Origin: an uncultured Candidatus Saccharibacteria bacterium
GTDB lineage: Bacteria > Patescibacteriota > Minisyncoccia > Phycocordibacterales > WO2-35-19
NCBI GenBank assembly: GCA_964589445.1
Contig: CAZPQX010000003.1
Span: forward strand, 42,133-106,132
DNA: 64,000 bases
Direction of reading: 5' to 3'
Shown here: one piece after another, positions 7,010 through 25,334 of the stretch
How positions within the stretch are numbered: the first letter of the stretch is position 1
Layout: each line of letters begins with the position of its first letter
The notes under the pieces: model-generated
What the model was told of the DNA's origin: nothing
The model's database searches: none
Seen by the model: only the letters and a program-made list of their open reading frames with translations
Made by a program: the position numbers and the translations under genes

Positions 7010-7332
7010 AAATATCAATAGCTAAAGATTTTTCGGTGACACCAGGAGCTCGCTACAAGAAAGAGGGTGATTTTTCAGGTGAAGAATTTAGGGATAAAAT
7101 CCTAGAACCTGCTTTTTTGAGGGCAAAAAAAGAAGGTTGTAAGTTGGTTGTAGATTTAGATGGAACAATTGGGTACGGGACAAGCTTCTTAGAGGAAGTT
7201 TTTGGTGGTCTCGCAAGAACGCAGGGCCCAAATGAAGTCTTTTCCGTATTAGAAGTTTTATCTACAGAAGAAGAATATTTAAAAGAGGACGTTCTTGGGT
7301 ATATAAAAGATGTTAAAGTGGACAAATCTTAA
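6991..7332 (+). CDS. STAS-like (DUF4325-type) small protein, partner of the GHKL ATPase
   Basis: GEEFRDKILEPAFLRAKKEGCKLVVDLDGTIGYGTSFLEEVFGGL fits the G..FR..I.....V.LDF.GV....SF.DE..G.L pattern; overlaps upstream gene by 19 nt; start uncertain. Confidence 0.45.
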   Translation: MDNKIIKISIAKDFSVTPGARYKKEGDFSGEEFRDKILEPAFLRAKKEGCKLVVDLDGTIGYGTSFLEEVFGGLARTQGPNEVFSVLEVLSTEEEYLKEDVLGYIKDVKVDKS

Positions 7333-7993: not shown

Positions 7994-8884
7994 ATGAAAA
8001 AGGAACTTAAAAACATAGCAGTGCTCGGGGTTTTTGCTTTGCTGGTATTGATTGGAGTGGGGGAGAAAGCACTCGCTACTATAGGTGGCCCGACCTACAT
8101 ATATGATTTCAAATACAACCCGAAAGATGAGTCGGTGTACTACACTGAAAGCGACTACGGAGGCAGAGGCTGCCCACCCATGCTCTCCAAAACATCACTC
8201 GCCACAGGCGTGAGTCAAAAGGTGTACTCATGTGACCAGGGGGAAAAATTATACGACGGAAAAGATTATGAGGTTGCTATTGCTGAGGTGAGGGCTCAGA
8301 TAAACGCCATCACTCAAAATTTCAAAAACCTGGTACCTATCAGTCTAAAGAAAAATAATATTGCTATTGATTTAAAGTTTGTGAGAACTGAAAATTTGAA
8401 CCCCGAGATAGATGAGATCAAAAACAGTGTGTTTAGTGCAACTGTATATCAAGGTGACAAAAAACTGACAGAAATGGAGATATCGGGCTGCAACACTGAG
8501 CAGCCTTTCACTTTTGCCGGCTATGCTGTGCCTGGGTTTGATAAAAAGATAGTGCTCCTCCTTTCTACAAAGGGTGATTGTTTTGAAGGTGGCTATATAG
8601 ACGAGTCGCTCCTCGTGGTGGGCGGCCTAAATTCTATAAACAGAGAATCTTTAAATTTTTATAAGAGCGACGAAGCTCTAGTACCCAACGAAGGCACACT
8701 CACTGTATATGAAAATGAAAGTGTGGAGGTGGTAAATAATGGCGAAGTAGAAACACCTACAGAAACGGAAACAGAAGCAGAGGGAGAGGCAAATATGAAT
8801 TTATATATAATATTTGGGGTAGCCGCTCTGGTGCTTGTGGTACTCGGGTTTGTTGTAGGTAGGATGAGTAAAAAACAAGTTTAG
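7994..8884 (+). CDS. Secreted/membrane-anchored hypothetical protein (signal peptide plus C-terminal TM anchor, acidic TETE linker)
   Basis: N-terminal signal-like MKKELKNIAVLGVFALLVLIG and C-terminal LYIIFGVAALVLVVLGFVVGR. Confidence 0.5.
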   Translation: MKKELKNIAVLGVFALLVLIGVGEKALATIGGPTYIYDFKYNPKDESVYYTESDYGGRGCPPMLSKTSLATGVSQKVYSCDQGEKLYDGKDYEVAIAEVRAQINAITQNFKNLVPISLKKNNIAIDLKFVRTENLNPEIDEIKNSVFSATVYQGDKKLTEMEISGCNTEQPFTFAGYAVPGFDKKIVLLLSTKGDCFEGGYIDESLLVVGGLNSINRESLNFYKSDEALVPNEGTLTVYENESVEVVNNGEVETPTETETEAEGEANMNLYIIFGVAALVLVVLGFVVGRMSKKQV

Positions 8885-8893
8885 GAAGCCCTC

Positions 8894-9142
8894 ATGTATA
8901 AAGTTTATATCCTCGAATGTGCTGACCAAACTTTGTATGTCGGCTCGACCAACAATTTGGAGAAGCGGCTCGTAGAGCACAATACTTCTAAGAAAGGTGC
9001 TCACTATACGAAAATAAGAAGGCCAGTGGTTTTGAGGTATTCTGAAGACATGCCCAACCTCTCCGCCGCCCTAAAAAGGGAACTTGAGATAAAAAGATTA
9101 AAAAGACAGGAGAAGCTAGCTTTGATTGAAAAAACTGGGTAA
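8894..9142 (+). CDS. GIY-YIG nuclease family protein, copy 3
   Basis: MYKVYILECADQTLYVGSTNNLEKRLVEHNTSKKGAHYTKIRRPVVL is near-identical to copy 2. Confidence 0.85.
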   Translation: MYKVYILECADQTLYVGSTNNLEKRLVEHNTSKKGAHYTKIRRPVVLRYSEDMPNLSAALKRELEIKRLKRQEKLALIEKTG

Positions 9143-17016: not shown

Positions 17017-17370
17017 TTGTTTGGGTTTAAAAATGCACTAAGAAGTGGTAGAGTTTGGGGGATGAAGGAAATCTTTTTGGATATAGGGTTTATACTTCTC
17101 ATGTATCTCTTGGCTTTTTTGTTTGGTTTTGGGTATAGGGCTGTTTTGAAATATTTTGCCAAAGGGACTGTGAGAGGGGTGAATAAAAATATTGGGAAGG
17201 TAGGGCGCCTTGTGCGCTTCGCTATAGGTGTGCTACTACTCATCCTCGCCATCACCACCACATGGAGCCCGCTCACTCTCTTCTTCTCTGGCTTCGCCAT
17301 CTTCGAAGCTCTCTTTAGCTGGTGCGGCTTCTACGCCGCCATTGGCAAGAATAGCTGCCCAGTGGGGTAA
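17017..17370 (+). CDS. DUF2892/YgaP-like small membrane protein
   Basis: TM-rich; C-terminal ...WCGFYAAIGKNSCPVG is typical of DUF2892. Start is probably ATG at 17062. Confidence 0.45.
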   Translation: MFGFKNALRSGRVWGMKEIFLDIGFILLMYLLAFLFGFGYRAVLKYFAKGTVRGVNKNIGKVGRLVRFAIGVLLLILAITTTWSPLTLFFSGFAIFEALFSWCGFYAAIGKNSCPVG

Positions 17371-17375
17371 AAGTT

Positions 17376-19889
17376 ATGAAAAATAAAGAAGCAAAAGCAC
17401 GAATAAAAATAAACAAACTCCTTGAACAAGCAGGTTGGCGTTTTTTTGATAATGAAAAGGGACAAGCAAATATTTCGCTTGAGCCGAATGTAAAACTTAC
17501 CCAAAAGGACATTGACGCTTTTGGTGAGGATTTTGAATCTACAAAAAACGGATTTATTGATTTTTTATTGCTTGATGAAAAAGGTTTTCCGTTTGTTATT
17601 TTAGAAGCCAAAAAAGAATATAAAAACCCGCTCGACGGCAAAGAACAGGCGAGAAAATACGCTCATACCGAAAACGCCCGCTTTGTTATTCTTTCAAACG
17701 GCAATCTTCACTATTTTTGGGATTTAGAACGAGGTGATCCTGAAATCATCACCGAATTTCCGACACAAGAATCTTTGAAACACAGACAGGATTTCAAACC
17801 AGATAATCAGCGTTTGGCAGACGAAGAAGTCAGAGACGATTATATTGCACTTACGCAAAACCCGAATTTCAAAGATGATCCTCGCTACAAACAAGAAGAA
17901 ACGCGAGAGCAATATCTTTGGGAAGAAAATTTGCGAATTTTGCGACCTTATCAGCTTAAAGCAATACACGCTTTGCAAAAATCCGCCGAAGCTGGAAATG
18001 ATCGTTTCCTTTTTGAAATGGCAACGGGGACAGGAAAAACGCTTATTTCCGCCGCCGTCATCAAACTGTTTTTGCGAACAGGCAACGCCAAAAGAATTTT
18101 GTTTTTAGTGGATCGCTTAGAATTGGAAGATCAAGCGCATAAAAACTTTGTCCGCTATTTGAGCAATGATTTTTCATCAGTTATTTACAAACAAAACCGC
18201 GATGACTGGAAAAAAGCGGAGGTTGTCATTTCAACAGTTCAAAGTCTTTCGGCGCAAGATAAATACAAAAAACTTTTTTCGCCGACTGATTTTGATTTGA
18301 TTATCGCCGATGAATCACACCGCGCAATCGGCGGAAACTCGCGCGCAGTTTTTGAATACTTTATCGGCTACAAATTGGGCTTAACTGCAACACCGAAAGA
18401 CTATTTGAAAAATGTTGATCCACAGAAACTTTCACAAAAAGACCCGCGCGCTTGGGAAAGACGACAACTCTTGGACACTTACACGACATTCGGCTGTAAA
18501 AATGGCGAGCCAACTTTCCGATTTAGCTTGCTTGACGGCGTAAAAGAAGGATTTTTGATCAATCCTATTGTTTCAGACGCGCGAACCGACATCACCACCG
18601 AACTACTCTCGGAAAAGGGCTACGCGGTTATGGTTGAAGATGAAGACGGCACAGGAAGCGAAGAAACATTTTTCCAAAAAGATTTTGAAAAGAAATTCTT
18701 TTCCGAAAAAACAAATCGCGTCTTTTGCCAAACACTCATTGAAAATTCTCTCAAAGACCCAATAAGCGGAGAAATCGGCAAGACCATTGTGTTTTGCGTG
18801 AGCCAAAAGCACGCTTCCAAAATTACCCAAACGCTCAACCAAATGGCGAGCCAACTTTGGCCCGACAAATACAATTCTGATTTTGCGTTGCAAATAACTT
18901 CAAACATTGCCGATAGCCAGCAATTCACAATCAACTTCGCAAACAATAACCTAAACGGACACACCAAGTTTTTGGAAAACTATAAATCCAGCAAAACGAG
19001 GGTTTGCGTAACTGTTGGAATGATGACCACGGGCTACGACTGCCAAGACATTTTGAATCTTGCGCTTATGCGCCCGATTTTCTCGCCGACTGATTTTATT
19101 CAGATCAAAGGACGAGGAACAAGAAAATTCACCTTTGAATATATGGACGAATACGGCGAAAAGCACAAAAAGCCAAAAGACCATTTCAAATTTTTTGATT
19201 TCTTCGCTAACTGCGAATATTTTGAAGAAAAATTTGATTATGACGAGGTTTTGCAACTGCCTATCAAGCAAAAAGGAACAGGCGGAGAAGGACCAGTCGG
19301 TGTTGACATTGATGAATTTGAAACTTTCAATCCCGATAAAGTAAAAACTCTTACGGAAACACCTGTCGGAATAGAAGGGATGAAAGTTGATCGCAAACTA
19401 TTTGAAAAAGCTCGCGAAGAATTGCAAAAAGACACTGAGGTAAAATCTGCCGTGGAAAACGAGCAATGGGACAAAGCGGTGCAAATTATGCGCGACAAAT
19501 ACGAAGACAAACCGCAATTATTCTTGAATCTTGAAAAAATCCGCAAGAGCGAAAACCTTGATCGCCGTATTTCTTGGCGCGAATTCTTGGAACGAGCCTT
19601 CGGCTTGATTGACGTTTTCAAATCCAAAGACGAAAAACTGGAAGAAGAATGCGAAAAGTTTATTTCAATTTACAAGCCCGAAAGCAAATATGTTCCGCAT
19701 ATCAAAAACTATCTGAAAGCGTATGTTACGGATGAAAAATTCCGCGACATTATCAACAACAAACATTTCGCCGACTTGAATGTTTATGCGGGGTTTACAA
19801 TGGCGGAATTTAAGGAATTAAACGGATGGCGGGAAACTGTGCCTGAATATGTGAAAGATTATGTTCCCGTTAATCAGTTTATGAGGTAG
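17376..19889 (+). CDS. hsdR: Type I restriction enzyme R subunit (HSDR_N PD-(D/E)xK nuclease plus SF2 helicase)
   Basis: N-terminal FIDFLLLDEKGFPFVILEAKKE (D..EAK nuclease); helicase motif I MATGTGKT; motif II DESHR. Confidence 0.75.
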   Translation: MKNKEAKARIKINKLLEQAGWRFFDNEKGQANISLEPNVKLTQKDIDAFGEDFESTKNGFIDFLLLDEKGFPFVILEAKKEYKNPLDGKEQARKYAHTENARFVILSNGNLHYFWDLERGDPEIITEFPTQESLKHRQDFKPDNQRLADEEVRDDYIALTQNPNFKDDPRYKQEETREQYLWEENLRILRPYQLKAIHALQKSAEAGNDRFLFEMATGTGKTLISAAVIKLFLRTGNAKRILFLVDRLELEDQAHKNFVRYLSNDFSSVIYKQNRDDWKKAEVVISTVQSLSAQDKYKKLFSPTDFDLIIADESHRAIGGNSRAVFEYFIGYKLGLTATPKDYLKNVDPQKLSQKDPRAWERRQLLDTYTTFGCKNGEPTFRFSLLDGVKEGFLINPIVSDARTDITTELLSEKGYAVMVEDEDGTGSEETFFQKDFEKKFFSEKTNRVFCQTLIENSLKDPISGEIGKTIVFCVSQKHASKITQTLNQMASQLWPDKYNSDFALQITSNIADSQQFTINFANNNLNGHTKFLENYKSSKTRVCVTVGMMTTGYDCQDILNLALMRPIFSPTDFIQIKGRGTRKFTFEYMDEYGEKHKKPKDHFKFFDFFANCEYFEEKFDYDEVLQLPIKQKGTGGEGPVGVDIDEFETFNPDKVKTLTETPVGIEGMKVDRKLFEKAREELQKDTEVKSAVENEQWDKAVQIMRDKYEDKPQLFLNLEKIRKSENLDRRISWREFLERAFGLIDVFKSKDEKLEEECEKFISIYKPESKYVPHIKNYLKAYVTDEKFRDIINNKHFADLNVYAGFTMAEFKELNGWRETVPEYVKDYVPVNQFMR

Positions 19890-19900
19890 CCAAAAATATT

Positions 19901-21769
19901 ATGCTTGATCAGACTACAAAACGAAAACTAGACTCTGCCCGACAAATTCTTGTCGGCAAAGTGCCAGACCCCAAGGCGCAAGTTGAGCAAATCACGACTG
20001 CGCTTGTCTATAAGTTTATGGACGATATGGACAAGGAATCGGAAGAGCTTGGCGGAGAGGCGAAATTTTTTGCCAACAGTTTTTCACAGTATTCTTGGAC
20101 GAAACTTATGAACAACAAACTTTCTGGGCAAGAACGCCTTGATTTATATGTTCAGGCAATTACGAATATGTCTAAAAACCCGCATATTCCGCAATTGTTT
20201 CGTGATATTTTCAAAGGCGCGTTTTTGCCATACAACGATCCTCGCACACTTTCGCTATTTCTCAAAGAGATCAATGAATTTAATTACGAACATAGCGAAA
20301 ACTTGGGCAATGCTTTTGAATATTTGCTTTCTATTCTCGGAAGCCAAGGCGACGCGGGACAATTCCGCACACCTCGCCACATTATTGATTTTATAGTTGA
20401 AGTGGTTGATCCAAAAAAGAACGAAACAATCCTTGATCCCGCTTGCGGAACGGCTGGATTTTTGATTTCTGCATACAAACATATTTTGAGGCAGAATAAA
20501 GAAAAATCTCTCACGCCAGACGAAAAATTGAAATTGATGAATAATCTTGCGGGCTATGATATTTCGCCCGATATGGTGAAATTGGCGCTCGTAAATTTGT
20601 ATTTACATGGCTTTCCAGATCCAAAAATTCACGAATATGATTCACTCACAAGCGAAAAGCGGTGGGGAGAAACATTTGATGTAATAATGGCAAACCCGCC
20701 CTTTACAACACCAAAAGGCGGAGTTAGTCCACATTCAAGGTTTAATGTAAGCGTGAAAAGAACTGAGGTTTTATTTGTTGATTATATTGTCAATCATTTA
20801 AATATTTCTGGACGCTCTGGTATTGTTGTTCCCGCTGGAGTGGTTTTTAAAGATGATTCTGGTTATGTCAAAATAAGAAAAAATCTTATTGATAGCAATC
20901 TACTCTGGGCTGTAATTTCGTTGCCTGGCGGAGTTTTTAACCCATATTCCAATGCTGAAACAAGCATTTTGTTTTTAGATAAAAAAGTTGCCCAAAAAAC
21001 AAGTAAAATTTTGTTTGTAAACATCAACAATGATGGTTATAGCCTTGGGAACACAAGAAATCCCATTAAAGATAATGATCTGCCTTCGGCTTTGGAATTA
21101 TTGAAAAATTATGCTAATGGGAAAAATATAAACAGTAGCCAAGCGTTATTTGTTGAAAAAGAGGATATAAAAAATAATTATTACATTCTTGTCGGCGATA
21201 GATATAAAAAGAATGGTGATAAAAAAACAAAAAATCATCTGCCGTTGAGTAAGCTTTTATTGCGGAATAAAACGCCAATAAATATTGAGAGCAATATTGT
21301 GTATAAAAGAGCAACCATAAAACTTTATGGGAAAGGTCTTTCAATAAGAGATGAGGAGATAGGGTCAAAGATAAATACAAAAAAACAATTTCTTATCAAA
21401 AAAGGTCAGCTACTACTTTCAAAAATTGATGCCCGAAATGGAGCGTTTGGAATAGTCCCTCAAGAATTAGACGGGGCAATTATTACTGGAAATTTTTGGG
21501 CTTTTGATATAAATGAAAATTTTGTAAACAAAGATTATTTGTCTTATCTGCTCTCTTCTAAAAAATTCTATTCAATTTGTAAAGATGCCAGCTCTGGGGT
21601 TACAAACAGAAAATACTTAAACGAAACTAAATTCTTGGCAATGGAAATTGAATTACCAAAAATTGAAGAGCAGAACAAATTGATAACGGAATTAAATGGT
21701 TACAAGAGTAAAATTGAGGAGTTGCAGAAAGAGCTTGATTCCAGAATAGCAAAAGAATGGGATGTATAA
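19901..21769 (+). CDS. hsdM: Type I RM fused methyltransferase-specificity protein (HsdM N6-adenine MTase plus a single HsdS-type target-recognition domain)
   Basis: GQFRTPRHI...DPACGTAGFL (SAM binding) and NPPF catalytic motif. The C-terminal ~190 aa (GAFGIVPQELDGAIITGNFWAF...) resemble an HsdS half-TRD. Confidence 0.7.
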   Translation: MLDQTTKRKLDSARQILVGKVPDPKAQVEQITTALVYKFMDDMDKESEELGGEAKFFANSFSQYSWTKLMNNKLSGQERLDLYVQAITNMSKNPHIPQLFRDIFKGAFLPYNDPRTLSLFLKEINEFNYEHSENLGNAFEYLLSILGSQGDAGQFRTPRHIIDFIVEVVDPKKNETILDPACGTAGFLISAYKHILRQNKEKSLTPDEKLKLMNNLAGYDISPDMVKLALVNLYLHGFPDPKIHEYDSLTSEKRWGETFDVIMANPPFTTPKGGVSPHSRFNVSVKRTEVLFVDYIVNHLNISGRSGIVVPAGVVFKDDSGYVKIRKNLIDSNLLWAVISLPGGVFNPYSNAETSILFLDKKVAQKTSKILFVNINNDGYSLGNTRNPIKDNDLPSALELLKNYANGKNINSSQALFVEKEDIKNNYYILVGDRYKKNGDKKTKNHLPLSKLLLRNKTPINIESNIVYKRATIKLYGKGLSIRDEEIGSKINTKKQFLIKKGQLLLSKIDARNGAFGIVPQELDGAIITGNFWAFDINENFVNKDYLSYLLSSKKFYSICKDASSGVTNRKYLNETKFLAMEIELPKIEEQNKLITELNGYKSKIEELQKELDSRIAKEWDV

Positions 21770-24120
21770 TTTATCGAAACATGAAGCTGAAAAGTATCAA
21801 AAAAATCAAAGGTTATAAATCGTTCCAAGATTTTGATTGGCAACCTTTTTTGAATAATGAAACTTTTCATGATGAAGTAAATATTCTTTATGGCGAAAAT
21901 GGAAGTGGTAAAAGCTCAATTGCCAACCTTTTGAAAAGTGTTTCAGAAAATAAAGATTTTGGTAAGTACATACCAGCCGAAGCGTGTTTGGTATTTGATG
22001 ACGGCGAGAAAAAATATCCAGTAAATAACGATTGGGACAATAAAATTTCAAAAGGTTCCATTTTGTTTTTTGATCGCGAATTTATTGATAAAAATGTTCA
22101 TTTGGGACACAGACGAGACACAACGCAAAACGGACAAGAACAAGAATCGGGCAAGATGATTATCGAGTTTGATAGCGACGCTATCAATTTGCGTGGTGTA
22201 AGAGATACGGCTAAAAAAGCGAAAGACGAACAAGACCAGAAAATTAAAGATTTCAATTCTGCGAATAAGGATTCATTGGCTTTTGCTTTGACTGACAATG
22301 AACAGCCGTTTTTCAAAAACTACAAAGATAAAAGTGAAGAAGAAATCAAAACAGCAAAACAAACATTGGGAAAGGAGAAAAAAGAAGCCGAAAAGAGCCT
22401 TGAAACAGATCAGGGATTGCAAAAGAAAGTCGCCAGTATCCAAAGAGACATAAAAAGCTTGCCGACAGAAGAAGTTGAAATTTCCTTTTCTGATGAGAAA
22501 ACATATCAGGCAATTTTTGATTTTGACCTAAAAGAGCAGGCAAAAATAGAAGCCGAGCAGACTTTGATTGATAAAGTTAAATCGCATAAATCATTCTTTG
22601 AAACTGGTTTTGAAATTAGAAAGACACACCAAAATCAGTGTCCTTTTTGCCAATCTGAAAATGAAGAAGCAGGAATCAAAAACATCGTTGATCTATACGA
22701 GCAAATTTATGACACGACATATAAAACACAAGTGCATCAATTTGAAAAAGATAAACAAGTCCTGCTTGATGAAATTTCACAAATTACACAAGCCGTTTCC
22801 GATTTTGATTTGAACAGTATTTTTCTTGAACTTAAAAAATTAGACCAAAATTACAAAATACCAAATATCTACTCTGTTGATGACGAAAAAACATACAAAA
22901 AACCAGCGGTGAAAGAGATAAAAGAGTTGAGTGGTAAAATAACGAAACTTGCGAAGCCAAGCAAAGAGGACATCAAAGAGCTTTATGCAAAAGTAAAAAC
23001 TGAATTTGAGGCGATTGAAGCATTTTTCAAGTCAATTAGTGATTTTGTAGATCAAAAGAACAAGCTCATTTCTAAATTCAAATCCGACAACACCGATGAA
23101 AAACTTCAAGCACGAATTGTTTCAAGCGGTAAAAGAATTGCTGAAATTGAAAAAGAGTTGGTTTTTATAAATGGAAACAAGATAAAGGAACAACAAAAGA
23201 AAGAGCAAAAAGAAAAGGAACAAAAAGCTTTGCAAGATGTTTTTGCTACGCTAAAAACAGAATACGATACAGCCTTAAAAGAATACGAAGATCATTGTTC
23301 GACAAAGGCTTTTTCAAACCTTTTGTCTAAAATTCAAGAATATTTCAAAAATTTCAATTTTAGTTTTAGGCTTGAACCAAAAACAGCACCAACAGGAAAC
23401 AAAACCGAATTTCCGTTTGCGTTCAAGGTTTTGGATTTTGAGGGAAACGAGCGAGATTTCAAAGAGGGACTTTCCGAGGGGGAAATTCAGGTTTTGTCCC
23501 TTTGTTTTTTCTTTGCGTTTCTTGATATACAAAAAGATAAAAAACAAAAGGTGCTTGTTTTTGACGACCCGATCACGAGTTTGGATAATAGCAATTTGAG
23601 TTGTCTCGTTGATTTAATCGCCGAAGAGCAAAAAAACTTTTCACAAATTTTTGTTTTTTCTCACCACAGAACCTTTTTCAAATTTTTAAGAAAGCGATTT
23701 GATAAAAATTGCCATGAATACAATCTAATCCGAAACAAAAAAGAATTTGGCGGAAGTTTTATTTGCAAAAGTAAATCTGATAAATTTTTGGCTAAGCTGA
23801 AAAATTTTGAAACTGACTTGGCGAAAATTCCGCCAGCAAGTCTTGATGTTGAATTGAAAGTCGTTGAATATGGGCAATATTTGCGATATGAGGTTGAAAG
23901 GCATATCAAAAATAATTTATTGCACTGGAACGCAAATGATTTCCCAACGGCGATTGATGGTGTAAAATGTAATAAAGAGATAGATGACGGCGATTTGGAC
24001 AAAATCAAGCAAATATATTCGTTTTGCAACTGGACGACTTCGCATGTTGATGTAGGAGATGATCATGGACTTGGACAACTGAAAACAAAAATCGCCGATT
24101 TTGTAGCAATTGTTAAATAG
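21757..24120 (+). CDS. RloC-like Rad50/SbcC-type ABC ATPase with a coiled-coil zinc hook; candidate anticodon nuclease
   Basis: Walker A GENGSGKSS; long Lys/Glu coiled coil containing a CPFC (CxxC) hook; signature LSEGEIQVLSL; Walker B/D-loop VLVFDDPITSLD; H-loop FSHH. The C-terminal ~150-aa domain has R-x3-E...H candidates (LRYEVERH). Positioned right after hsdR/hsdMS as in restriction-linked RloC. Start may be ATG at 21781. Confidence 0.55.
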   Translation: MGCIIYRNMKLKSIKKIKGYKSFQDFDWQPFLNNETFHDEVNILYGENGSGKSSIANLLKSVSENKDFGKYIPAEACLVFDDGEKKYPVNNDWDNKISKGSILFFDREFIDKNVHLGHRRDTTQNGQEQESGKMIIEFDSDAINLRGVRDTAKKAKDEQDQKIKDFNSANKDSLAFALTDNEQPFFKNYKDKSEEEIKTAKQTLGKEKKEAEKSLETDQGLQKKVASIQRDIKSLPTEEVEISFSDEKTYQAIFDFDLKEQAKIEAEQTLIDKVKSHKSFFETGFEIRKTHQNQCPFCQSENEEAGIKNIVDLYEQIYDTTYKTQVHQFEKDKQVLLDEISQITQAVSDFDLNSIFLELKKLDQNYKIPNIYSVDDEKTYKKPAVKEIKELSGKITKLAKPSKEDIKELYAKVKTEFEAIEAFFKSISDFVDQKNKLISKFKSDNTDEKLQARIVSSGKRIAEIEKELVFINGNKIKEQQKKEQKEKEQKALQDVFATLKTEYDTALKEYEDHCSTKAFSNLLSKIQEYFKNFNFSFRLEPKTAPTGNKTEFPFAFKVLDFEGNERDFKEGLSEGEIQVLSLCFFFAFLDIQKDKKQKVLVFDDPITSLDNSNLSCLVDLIAEEQKNFSQIFVFSHHRTFFKFLRKRFDKNCHEYNLIRNKKEFGGSFICKSKSDKFLAKLKNFETDLAKIPPASLDVELKVVEYGQYLRYEVERHIKNNLLHWNANDFPTAIDGVKCNKEIDDGDLDKIKQIYSFCNWTTSHVDVGDDHGLGQLKTKIADFVAIVK

Positions 24121-24160
24121 TCCCGCCGTCCCGCCGAAAAGTTTTGGGGGCGAAGCCCAA

Positions 24161-24212
24161 GCAGGCGGGCAAAAAGGAAGGGGGTTGGGGGAAGGGATTT
24201 TTGCCCGCCTGC
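24161..24212. terminator. Strong hairpin (15-bp perfect stem gcaggcgggcaaaaa/tttttgcccgcctgc)
   Basis: Perfect inverted repeat with a G-rich loop downstream of the RloC-like gene. Confidence 0.55.
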
Positions 24213-24260
24213 TTCCGTTCTCCTTCTTTTTAAGCAAAGAAAAATTGTTAAAATAAATTT

Positions 24261-24725
24261 ATGAGTATAGAATTTTCTAAAAATTTAATTAAAGGAAAGA
24301 TTGCAGAAGTTGTGTTTGAACAAATGATTCGTGAAGAAGGCAAATATACAGTTATCCCTTTTGGTTATGAGCATACAGTACCAACACTTTCTCAATACCA
24401 GCATTTGGCGGTAGTAAAACAGATAATGGATAATATTTCTGATGCCCCTGATTTCGCTCTTATTTCAGAAGATAAAACAAAAGTTTATTTAGTTGAAGTT
24501 AAATTTCAAAGTAGATTAAATATTAATGATTTAGAAGAATACGCAATAAAATTATGTGATAGGTGGGAGTATCCCTGGCTTTTTGTTGCAACACGTGACG
24601 GTTTTTATAATGGATTATGTAGAGACATAATAAAAGAAAGACGAATCCCAGAACTAACAGAAAATTGGGTTAAAAAAGAACGACAAGAGGAATATTTGAA
24701 ATTACTAAACGAGTTTGAAAAATAA
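24261..24725 (+). CDS. PD-(D/E)xK-fold nuclease (Hjc/restriction-endonuclease-like)
   Basis: GKIAEVVFEQ...PDFALISEDKTKVYLVEVK gives the E...D...E-V-K arrangement. Confidence 0.45.
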   Translation: MSIEFSKNLIKGKIAEVVFEQMIREEGKYTVIPFGYEHTVPTLSQYQHLAVVKQIMDNISDAPDFALISEDKTKVYLVEVKFQSRLNINDLEEYAIKLCDRWEYPWLFVATRDGFYNGLCRDIIKERRIPELTENWVKKERQEEYLKLLNEFEK

Positions 24726-24785
24726 TTTTGTGGGTGTAGGATTTGGGGGATTGATAAAATCCCGTAAAATAATTTATATAAAAAC

Positions 24786-25334
24786 ATGGCTATAAAAATT
24801 ACATATTTTGTACACGGCACGACTACAGATAACGAGAAGCACATTTCTTCAGGTTGGAAGGATGTCGAGTTGTCAGAGCTTGGAGTTCAGCAGTCTAAAG
24901 AATTAACCGGAAAGACAAAAGACCAGAAATTTGATGTTGTGTTTTGCTCGGATTTGAAACGAGCTCATGACTCAGCTAAAATCACTTGGGAAGGCATATA
25001 TGAAATTATCCCTGATGCACGACTTAGAGAATGTAATTATGGCGATTTGAATGGTGCGTCTTCTGATGTTGTCGAACCGATGCAAGAAGGTGAATGCCTC
25101 GAGAAACCATTTCCAGGTGGTGAGAGTTATGAGGATGTGAAGTCTCGCATCGCAGATTTTTTGGAATTTCTAAAACAAAATTATGAAGGGAAGCATGTGG
25201 CTATAGTCGCACATAAGGCGCCACAAATTTCGCTTGATGTGTTGCTTAGGAGTAAGACTTGGGAGCAGGCGCTCGCCGAGGATTGGAGGAAGATAAAAGC
25301 GTGGCGCCCAGGTTGGGAATATAATTTGGAATAG
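24786..25334 (+). CDS. Histidine phosphatase superfamily (PGAM-like) protein
   Basis: FVHGTTTDN (RHG-like) and SDLKRAHDSA motifs. Confidence 0.6.
   Translation: MAIKITYFVHGTTTDNEKHISSGWKDVELSELGVQQSKELTGKTKDQKFDVVFCSDLKRAHDSAKITWEGIYEIIPDARLRECNYGDLNGASSDVVEPMQEGECLEKPFPGGESYEDVKSRIADFLEFLKQNYEGKHVAIVAHKAPQISLDVLLRSKTWEQALAEDWRKIKAWRPGWEYNLE

Follow-up and report, generated by a model that had tools for sequence, protein, structure and literature searches.

A probable mobile defence cassette combining a type I restriction–modification enzyme with an RloC-like ATPase in a Patescibacteria genome

Introduction

Restriction-linked anticodon nucleases are a textbook case of layered immunity, in which restriction acts first and suicide second. 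To our knowledge, work on them has been confined to PrrC and a few RloC proteins, all of them from cultured bacteria. Here we describe a locus at positions 17376-24244 of a 64,000-nt stretch of Patescibacteria DNA (contig CAZPQX010000003.1; this whole stretch is henceforth referred to as the window), in which the genes of a type I restriction–modification (R-M) enzyme are followed by a gene for an RloC-like ATPase. The two described systems closest to it differ in architecture. PrrC, encoded with the type Ic system EcoprrI of Escherichia coli, has about 400 amino acids (aa) and an uninterrupted ATP-binding cassette (ABC) domain; its gene lies inside the hsd operon, and the protein is presumed to be a second-line suicide defence. 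RloC, known from Geobacillus kaustophilus and Acinetobacter baylyi (COG4694), is larger, carries an antiparallel coiled-coil insert, cuts the wobble nucleotide out of tRNA and is regulated in a zinc- and DNA-responsive manner. Davidov and Kaufmann (2008) described RloC proteins of 658-897 aa with ABC motifs like those of PrrC, an alpha-helical insert that bears a CX2C zinc hook at its centre, and a C-proximal Arg-X3-Glu-X36-52-His motif, often with Ser before the His, whose mutation abolishes nuclease activity; in their survey, RloC was linked to R-M genes in 8 of 72 genomes. The study by Anantharaman et al. (2013) assigns the nuclease domains found in PrrC and RloC to HEPN and places RloC-like ABC-HEPN genes in R-M neighbourhoods that are mobile, in some cases with Fic/DOC toxins.

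By sequence criteria, the locus belongs to the RloC family, linked in one operon to a type I system in the manner of PrrC, and in these respects it fits known kinds. We think it likely that 17376-24244 is a horizontally mobile three-gene defence cassette, in which an RloC-family protein forms the second line behind a type I enzyme, and that the genes which follow, for a 154-aa PD-(D/E)xK nuclease and a histidine phosphatase, are merely resident. The locus thereby presents the logic of layered immunity in ultra-small, host-dependent Patescibacteria, a lineage apart from the hosts of the studied RloC proteins. The more novel leads are its clade's modularity, which is independent of restriction type, the bracketing of related cassettes by inverted repeats with a conserved hairpin loop, and the neighbouring serine recombinases.

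An RloC-like ATPase behind restriction–modification genes

An earlier, first-pass annotation of the window had placed five consecutive open reading frames (ORFs) on the forward strand (17376-19889, 19901-21769, 21757-24120, 24261-24725 and 24786-25334); these coordinates are exact, and the domain calls hold. The “tight junctions” reported with them exist between the first three genes, which are separated by 11-nt spacers, but not at the next two gaps, of 140 and 60 nt. The third ORF is open from 21757 (787 aa). Its start is most likely at 21781 (MKLK...), because nearly all homologs and the public gene call begin there, and we number residues from this position.

The resulting 779-aa protein (21781-24120, + strand), a putative anticodon nuclease, matches AAA_13 (4.3e-37), SMC_N and the PADLOC model PDC-S06 (1.5e-28). 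It has more than 200 homologs, those with named hosts being mostly Patescibacteria, and several close ones are called “wobble nucleotide-excising tRNase”, the name of the RloC COG, by IMG/JGI. Conservation was assessed in alignments of 17 sequences (the window protein and 16 homologs) and of 38 sequences. Invariant or nearly so are the Walker A motif GENGSGKS (residues 38-45), the Q-loop region, the signature LSEGE (564-568), VFDDPITSLD (around 595) and SHH (627-629), as well as YGQYLRYEVE and FCNWTTSHVDVGD in the last 140 residues. The candidate zinc hook CPFC (residues 287-290; 22639-22650, + strand) does not vary in the set of 17 and is kept by at least 90% of the set of 38; with Walker A (38) before it and the signature motif (564) after it, it falls in an insert of about 400 residues that splits the head and that is absent from PrrC, a protein about half the size. 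By a crude measure, heptad periodicity in insert residues 140-540 is 18.6-24.5; the heads give 4.5-10.7, and shuffled sequences 10.1+-1.6. Finally, the all-alpha C-terminal domain carries a putative nuclease triad, R702-X3-E706-X48-S754-H755 (23884-24045, + strand), which is an exact fit to the published Arg-X3-Glu-X36-52-His motif with Ser before the His, and of which R, E and H are invariant in all 38 sequences.

In size, ABC motifs, CX2C insert and C-terminal triad, the protein thus fits the published sequence definition of RloC, in support of the first-pass annotation, which had called an RloC-like ATPase behind R-M genes. Also in favour are the resemblance of the head to Rad50 and, weakly, the HEPN toxins that lead the fold matches of the C-terminal domain, HEPN being the class into which the PrrC and RloC nucleases fall. 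On this reading, it would combine a Rad50-like ABC head, a long helical arm with the CPFC zinc hook and a HEPN-like C-terminal ribonuclease with an Arg-Glu-His triad, and we infer both an RNase activity and a tRNA target.

Several observations weigh against this assignment. In an AlphaFold2 model of moderate confidence (pLDDT 72), the C-terminal domain is all-alpha and its top Foldseek matches in the PDB are HEPN toxins (7bxo, 1wwp, 7ae8 and 8xeh), but these matches are weak (E 0.25-2, TM 0.4-0.55). The C-terminal 138 residues alone match nothing in Pfam or PADLOC, even at E values up to 10. The AAA_13 match ends at position 604 of the 713 in the model, no model named RloC or PrrC is among the PADLOC and NCBIfam matches, and the evidence for a coiled coil is the crude periodicity measure given above. 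The RloC assignment itself was made by comparison with the published motif description. Moreover, the cassette in the window has no counterpart of the gene for a helix-turn-helix (HTH) regulator that its closest relatives carry (see below), and its regulation may differ.

These points leave some room for a different kind of restriction-linked ABC/coiled-coil defence ATPase, one that is no anticodon nuclease and whose C-terminal domain binds DNA or a partner, or cuts another substrate, like other AAA_13, PDC-S06 and Lamassu-LmuB-like proteins. The best PADLOC matches, PDC-S06 (1.5e-28) and LmuB (8e-20), are in keeping with such a protein, as are the C-terminal domain without a family match and the weak evidence for a HEPN fold. 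PDC-S06, the best-scoring defence model, covers most of the ATPase at about 98 bits, and is an uncharacterised single-gene candidate without a mechanism; in the literature, the name occurs in survey tables only. However, the R-X3-E-X48-SH motif is invariant and an exact RloC fit, the size, CX2C insert and ABC motifs are all RloC-like, IMG places close homologs in the RloC COG, and the neighbouring genes include no LmuA/LmuC, AriB or other effector partner. We therefore consider this alternative unlikely.

A DNA repair protein of the SbcC/Rad50 type can hardly be upheld at all. The head does show weak Rad50/SMC/SbcC similarity: it resembles Rad50 in a profile search against the PDB (1.4e-5), searches of the PDB with the sequence and profile of the ATPase returned only Rad50, SMC and AriA heads and no solved RloC or PrrC structure, and the only PHROGs match is SbcC-like. 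Against this, there is no SbcD/Mre11 phosphoesterase adjacent to the gene either here, where the first-pass annotation had named a canonical SbcD partner nearby as refuting its reading, or in 21 related loci. Such a protein would also leave unexplained an extra, conserved C-terminal domain with a nuclease triad, and a patchy cross-phylum distribution beside R-M genes and serine recombinases.

A type I enzyme with a fused methyltransferase–specificity subunit

The two genes upstream of the ATPase encode a type I R-M enzyme with a separate HsdR and a fused HsdM-HsdS, as the first-pass annotation had it: domain scans agree and the catalytic motifs are kept. The hsdR gene (17376-19889, + strand), apparently intact, encodes an 837-aa restriction subunit with matches to ResIII (1.9e-39), HSDR_N_2, HSDR_N and PADLOC REase_I (1.7e-55). 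It carries the motifs of a PD-(D/E)xK nuclease and a superfamily 2 (SF2) motor: D..EAK (52-79), GTGKT (218), DESH (312), TATP (337) and QIKGRGTR (576). Its nearest NCBIfam model is that of the EcoAI/FtnUII family, at 245 bits and thus under the model’s cut-off of 550. The fused subunit and this HsdR, nearest to the EcoAI (IB) family, set the enzyme apart from the type Ic system that accompanies PrrC.

In the 622-aa product of the second gene (19901-21769, + strand), HsdM is fused to a half-size HsdS. The methyltransferase part is recognised by N6_Mtase (1.4e-57, residues 133-440), HsdM_N and PADLOC MTase_I (4e-101), and has DPACGTAGF at 179 and NPPF at 265. The specificity part consists of a lone Methylase_S domain (477-606); PADLOC Specificity_I aligns residues 444-614 with positions 4-174 of a 382-position model. 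The enzyme thus lacks the two target recognition domains (TRDs) of a separate HsdS subunit. This fusion is natural and kept in relatives, where L001 and similar labels denote comparison loci or contigs (L001:4631-6475, L002:18-2129, L004:881-2737 and L037:3970-5877); across L001, L002, L004 and L037-L042, the fused proteins have 614-703 aa.

The arrangement is similar to the “Type IMS” enzymes and half-S type I systems, namely an engineered EcoKI M-S fusion and truncated HsdS dimers, in which HsdM is likewise fused to HsdS and HsdR is separate, or in which half-S subunits dimerise and give symmetric targets. A 2012 paper explicitly extended the name “Type IMS” to single-TRD forms. While the name comes from the engineered EcoKI fusion, the window and its relatives carry a natural, conserved fusion. 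Since two fusion subunits should dimerise through their single specificity domain, the enzyme is predicted to recognise a symmetric bipartite site. It would methylate the host DNA and cut incoming unmodified DNA, and hence act as the first line of defence.

The specificity segment is also where the cassette departs from that of L001. The two share DNA homology over 17370-21040 (85% identity) and 21777-24244 (92%), with a break between 21040 and 21777, at the variable TRD segment (21041-21769, + strand; GC content 0.31). Correspondingly, protein identity to L001 is 94% for HsdR and 95% for the ATPase, but 56% for HsdM-S. This is the usual picture of TRD swapping, and it predicts that otherwise near-identical cassettes would have differing symmetric bipartite sites.

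Restriction linkage across relatives of the ATPase

We compared 21 species-representative loci with a relative of the ATPase, 19 of which were assessable and two were not; a partner gene is one directly adjacent to the ATPase gene, upstream and on the same strand (except in L012). Methyltransferase-containing R-M genes lie directly beside the ATPase in 12 of the 19 assessable loci, and a restriction-like nuclease does so in a further 3 (L005, L007 and L008). The association proposed in the first-pass annotation is thus very common in relatives. All R-M types are represented: type I systems (L001, L002, L004, L009, L012 and L019; in L012, the ATPase gene lies between hsdS and hsdR), type II AlwI systems with methyltransferases (L010 and L018), a type II TdeIII system (L003), an EcoRI-like methyltransferase with a GmrSD/HNH nuclease (L013, likewise type II) and a type III Mod-Res pair (L014). 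The restriction-like neighbours are a GmrSD-HNH protein (L007), a superfamily 1 (SF1) helicase-nuclease (L005) and a PDDEXK_1 protein (L008). In L006, a Fic gene lies directly upstream of the ATPase gene, and four loci have no recognisable partner.

The most telling case is L003: its ATPase gene shares 88% DNA identity with the window over exactly 21781-24115 (90% in protein), yet stands behind the TdeIII type II system. As a copy this similar trails a type II system, restriction linkage is a property of this ATPase clade, and the gene is exchanged as a module between restriction systems. By comparison, RloC was reported to be rarely linked to R-M genes (8/72 genomes in the survey cited above, vs 12-15 of 19 loci in the window’s clade). 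ABC-HEPN genes in R-M operons are also found among the systems of Anantharaman et al. (2013), to which L006 with its upstream Fic gene is similar, and in the rloC/E/G inserts of Campylobacter jejuni type I loci; the 2013 study does not describe inverted-repeat bracketing, a G-rich hairpin loop or a serine recombinase neighbour.

By analogy with the studied RloC and PrrC proteins, the nuclease would stay inactive in uninfected cells. An infection that escapes restriction would release it, so that tRNA anticodon loops are cut, translation stops and the infection is aborted. What would trigger the release is suggested by the distribution of partners. Because the ATPase is paired with many R-M types, we favour a generic DNA signal at the Rad50-like head (DNA ends or breaks, as proposed for RloC) as the more likely trigger, over contact with one restriction protein as in PrrC.

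Under the latter kind of control, the cognate type I enzyme would mask the nuclease, and a phage anti-restriction protein that inactivates the enzyme would free it. We regard this as possible but doubtful. The PrrC precedent, the tight operon linkage with 11-nt spacers and the position of the L012 ATPase between hsdS and hsdR, like that of prrC, all speak for it. However, the architecture is of the RloC type, with 779 aa and a zinc-hook insert. In L003, a gene sharing about 88% of its DNA sequence (90% in protein) is tied to TdeIII, and more distant relatives are tied to AlwI, type III and GmrSD-like genes; these pairings are hard to square with a specific mask, and differ from the masking of PrrC by one enzyme. 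Nor is the gene order that of the prr locus. The first-pass annotation had likened the locus to the arrangement originally described for PrrC and RloC, which is correct in that an RloC-like gene is linked to R-M genes, but here the order is hsdR, hsdM-S and the ATPase last.

That one RloC clade is swapped as a module among type I, II, III and IV-like systems argues for a trigger independent of any particular restriction enzyme, and the natural ATPase/R-M pairs make the DNA-end-sensing model of RloC testable.

Cassette boundaries and mobility

The functional unit comprises the three genes and a 124-nt tail (17376-24244); an identical locus is present in the source sample SRR14271372. On its left lies a resident gene for a YgaP-like membrane protein (17017-17370, + strand; PF11127 YgaP-like_TM, 8.2e-14), which is outside the cassette and marks its boundary: the ATG of hsdR is 5 nt after the stop codon of this gene, and just upstream of it, after the gene that precedes it, there is a strong terminator-like hairpin. 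The right edge of the L001 homology, at 24244, is 17 nt before the 154-aa gene. Composition changes over the same region. The GC content is 0.40 in hsdR and 0.31-0.34 in the TRD segment and the ATPase gene, compared with a window mean of 0.41 and with 0.43-0.53 in the nearest upstream flanking genes and in the downstream genes from the phosphatase onward. When metagenome contigs were scanned for an empty insertion site, with the upstream 209-aa protein as query, no relatives turned up.

ATPase genes whose products are 50-94% identical to that of the window occur in bins of distant phyla: L002 (labelled Gammaproteobacteria), L003 (Saprospiraceae), L016 (Bacteroidota), L007 (Poribacteria) and L008 (Thermodesulfobacteriota). 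Either the cassette has been transferred across phyla, or short contigs were mis-binned. In L017 (9959-12375), a relative of the ATPase follows M16 peptidase genes and is split into two frames near the C-terminus; it is probably a decaying copy.

Inverted repeats, a conserved hairpin loop and serine recombinases

The 3' tail of the cassette (24121-24244, + strand) is conserved and contains a GC-rich hairpin with the loop GGAAGGGGGTTGGGGGAAGG (24171-24195). It matches the inner end of the L001 inverted-repeat arms at about 98% identity. The loop motif, GGAA-G5-6-T2-3-G5-6-AA, occurs once in the window (0 expected by chance), and in 596 kb of sequence from the comparison loci it was found only beside ATPase cassettes: at L001:8869-8884 and 8945-8959 plus their mirror copies, L013:12568-12582 and 7311-7325, and L018:12407-12419. 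It is 93-100% conserved, whereas the stems differ and the adjacent ATPases have diverged to 53-65% protein identity. The hairpin loop could serve as a site of recombination or as a terminator, or it could be a G-quadruplex-like element. A simple scan found no terminator after the ATPase gene, and the RNA fold of the tail was no better than that of shuffles (z = -0.9).

In relatives, inverted repeats of 79-389 nt with 75-100% complementarity bracket whole R-M plus RloC-like cassettes of differing restriction types; the bracketed cassettes of the L001 and L037 types span roughly 8 kb. The arms in L001 (1323-1711 and 8821-9209) are 389 nt long and 100% complementary, those in L013 (7209-7397 and 12496-12684) 189 nt and 100%, and those in L010 (5313-5391 and 12486-12564) 79 nt and 75%. 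Five JGI contigs with a near-identical cassette (L037-L041) have arms of 324-389 nt at 96% (e.g., L037:661-1045 and 8225-8609); as these arms are imperfect, the repeats are arguably no assembly artefact. The window’s sole remnant is the inner 124 nt of the right-hand arm, i.e., the tail itself.

Two further genes accompany the bracketed cassettes. One is a 69-aa, controller-like HTH_3 gene that precedes the R-M genes in the closest relatives (L001:1895-2104 and L037:1228-1437), where the near-identical JGI copies have it ahead of hsdR, and is also present in L009, L013 and L018. The other is a large serine recombinase gene, which lies just outside one repeat arm in the left flanks of L001 and L037-L041. 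Serine recombinase genes are further found beside RloC-like cassettes at L013:5514-6995 (- strand), L042:7967-8335, L005:12368-13627, L011:8520-9713, L015:12666-14147 and L021:880-2133. As the window has neither recombinase, HTH gene nor left arm, its cassette looks like a reduced copy.

We tentatively suggest that the window holds a stripped-down copy of an undescribed mobile module of Patescibacteria: an RloC-type plug-in that would serve any R-M system through a generic DNA signal, in a cassette bracketed by 0.1-0.4 kb inverted repeats with a G-rich hairpin loop, which an adjacent large serine recombinase may move or flip, possibly switching a toxic defence on and off. In L042, the cassette has the opposite orientation relative to the recombinase. 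We do not claim an inversion there, because both repeat arms are of the “left” type save at one position, and the arm positions fit an assembly path switch or gene conversion equally well.

Genes downstream of the cassette

The first gene after the cassette (24261-24725, + strand) encodes a conserved 154-aa PD-(D/E)xK protein with invariant E16, D64 and E79-x-K81 (AlphaFold2 pLDDT 90.5). It has 435 homologs; those listed are 61-88% identical, and the named ones are Paceibacteria. The protein has no library match at the default threshold, no PHROGs match and no PDB sequence match; below threshold, the Pfam families TnsA-like_N (32/40 members) and PDDEXK_11 (12/40) appear. Its fold matches at E ~5e-3 include influenza PA-N, Hjc, RecU and the SPARDA nuclease; in Foldseek, Hjc ST1444 scores E 7e-3 (TM 0.37-0.45) and RecU 1.2e-2, with influenza PA-N equally good. 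The “Hjc-like” label of the first-pass annotation is therefore right as to a generic PD-(D/E)xK fold, but Hjc is no better supported than several other families. The second gene (24786-25334, + strand) encodes a 182-aa histidine phosphatase (His_Phos_1, 2e-31) conserved in the lineage. Among its more than 7000 homologs, the top 120 all lie at 77-85% identity and most of them have 180-188 aa; those with names come from several Paceibacteria groups.

The first-pass annotation had counted both genes as part of a five-gene defence island, in which the nuclease and the phosphatase would be added effectors or modulators, e.g., with the phosphatase acting on cleaved tRNA ends. All five genes are adjacent on one strand, and the GC content at third codon positions (GC3) of the 154-aa gene is 0.19, lower even than that of the cassette (0.19-0.28 across genomes). 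Elsewhere this gene often ends defence-like or mobile cargo. However, neither gene occurs within 10 kb of any of 27 other ATPase loci, and the ATPase is absent from all 7 other contexts of the 154-aa gene. Homology of the cassette stops at 24244, and a 140-nt gap with the hairpin separates the ATPase gene from the 154-aa gene. The phosphatase is lineage-wide and stands in neighbourhoods (L035 and L036) that bear no relation to R-M genes, to the ATPase or to the 154-aa gene; its GC3 of 0.39 is near that of other downstream residents (0.43-0.46). The adjacency of the two genes is seen in this genome only.

A role for the pair in the island is accordingly very improbable, and for the phosphatase largely refuted already. 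Both are conserved Paceibacteria genes in unrelated neighbourhoods, a finding that the first-pass annotation itself had named as speaking against its reading. Of the proposed island, the R-M genes and the ATPase stand, while composition and DNA homology split off the two residents: the island has three genes, not five, and position alone is no ground to count the nuclease or the phosphatase among defence effectors. A phosphatase serving as repair partner for tRNA ends was likewise rejected, the gene being lineage-wide and unlinked elsewhere.

The 154-aa gene is repeatedly the last gene after defence-like or recombinase cargo (in the window, L023, L025, L026/27, L028/29, L030/31 and L032). It ends varied cargo or stands alone; its contexts include a Schlafen-like helicase, a PLD-SNF2 protein with a methyltransferase and a Panacea toxin-antitoxin module, serine-recombinase-adjacent genes and a GmrSD region. 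The gene may be a marker of an insertion hotspot, or it may move along with mobile cargo. A codon-identity comparison for recent transfer was undecided, as extreme third-position AT bias inflates codon identity.

In the phosphatase, V9-H10-G11 replaces the catalytic R-H-G that characterises the N-terminus of histidine phosphatase branch 1, despite the strong domain match. The replacement is invariant in 14 sequences (the window protein and 13 homologs), and the other core residues appear conserved.

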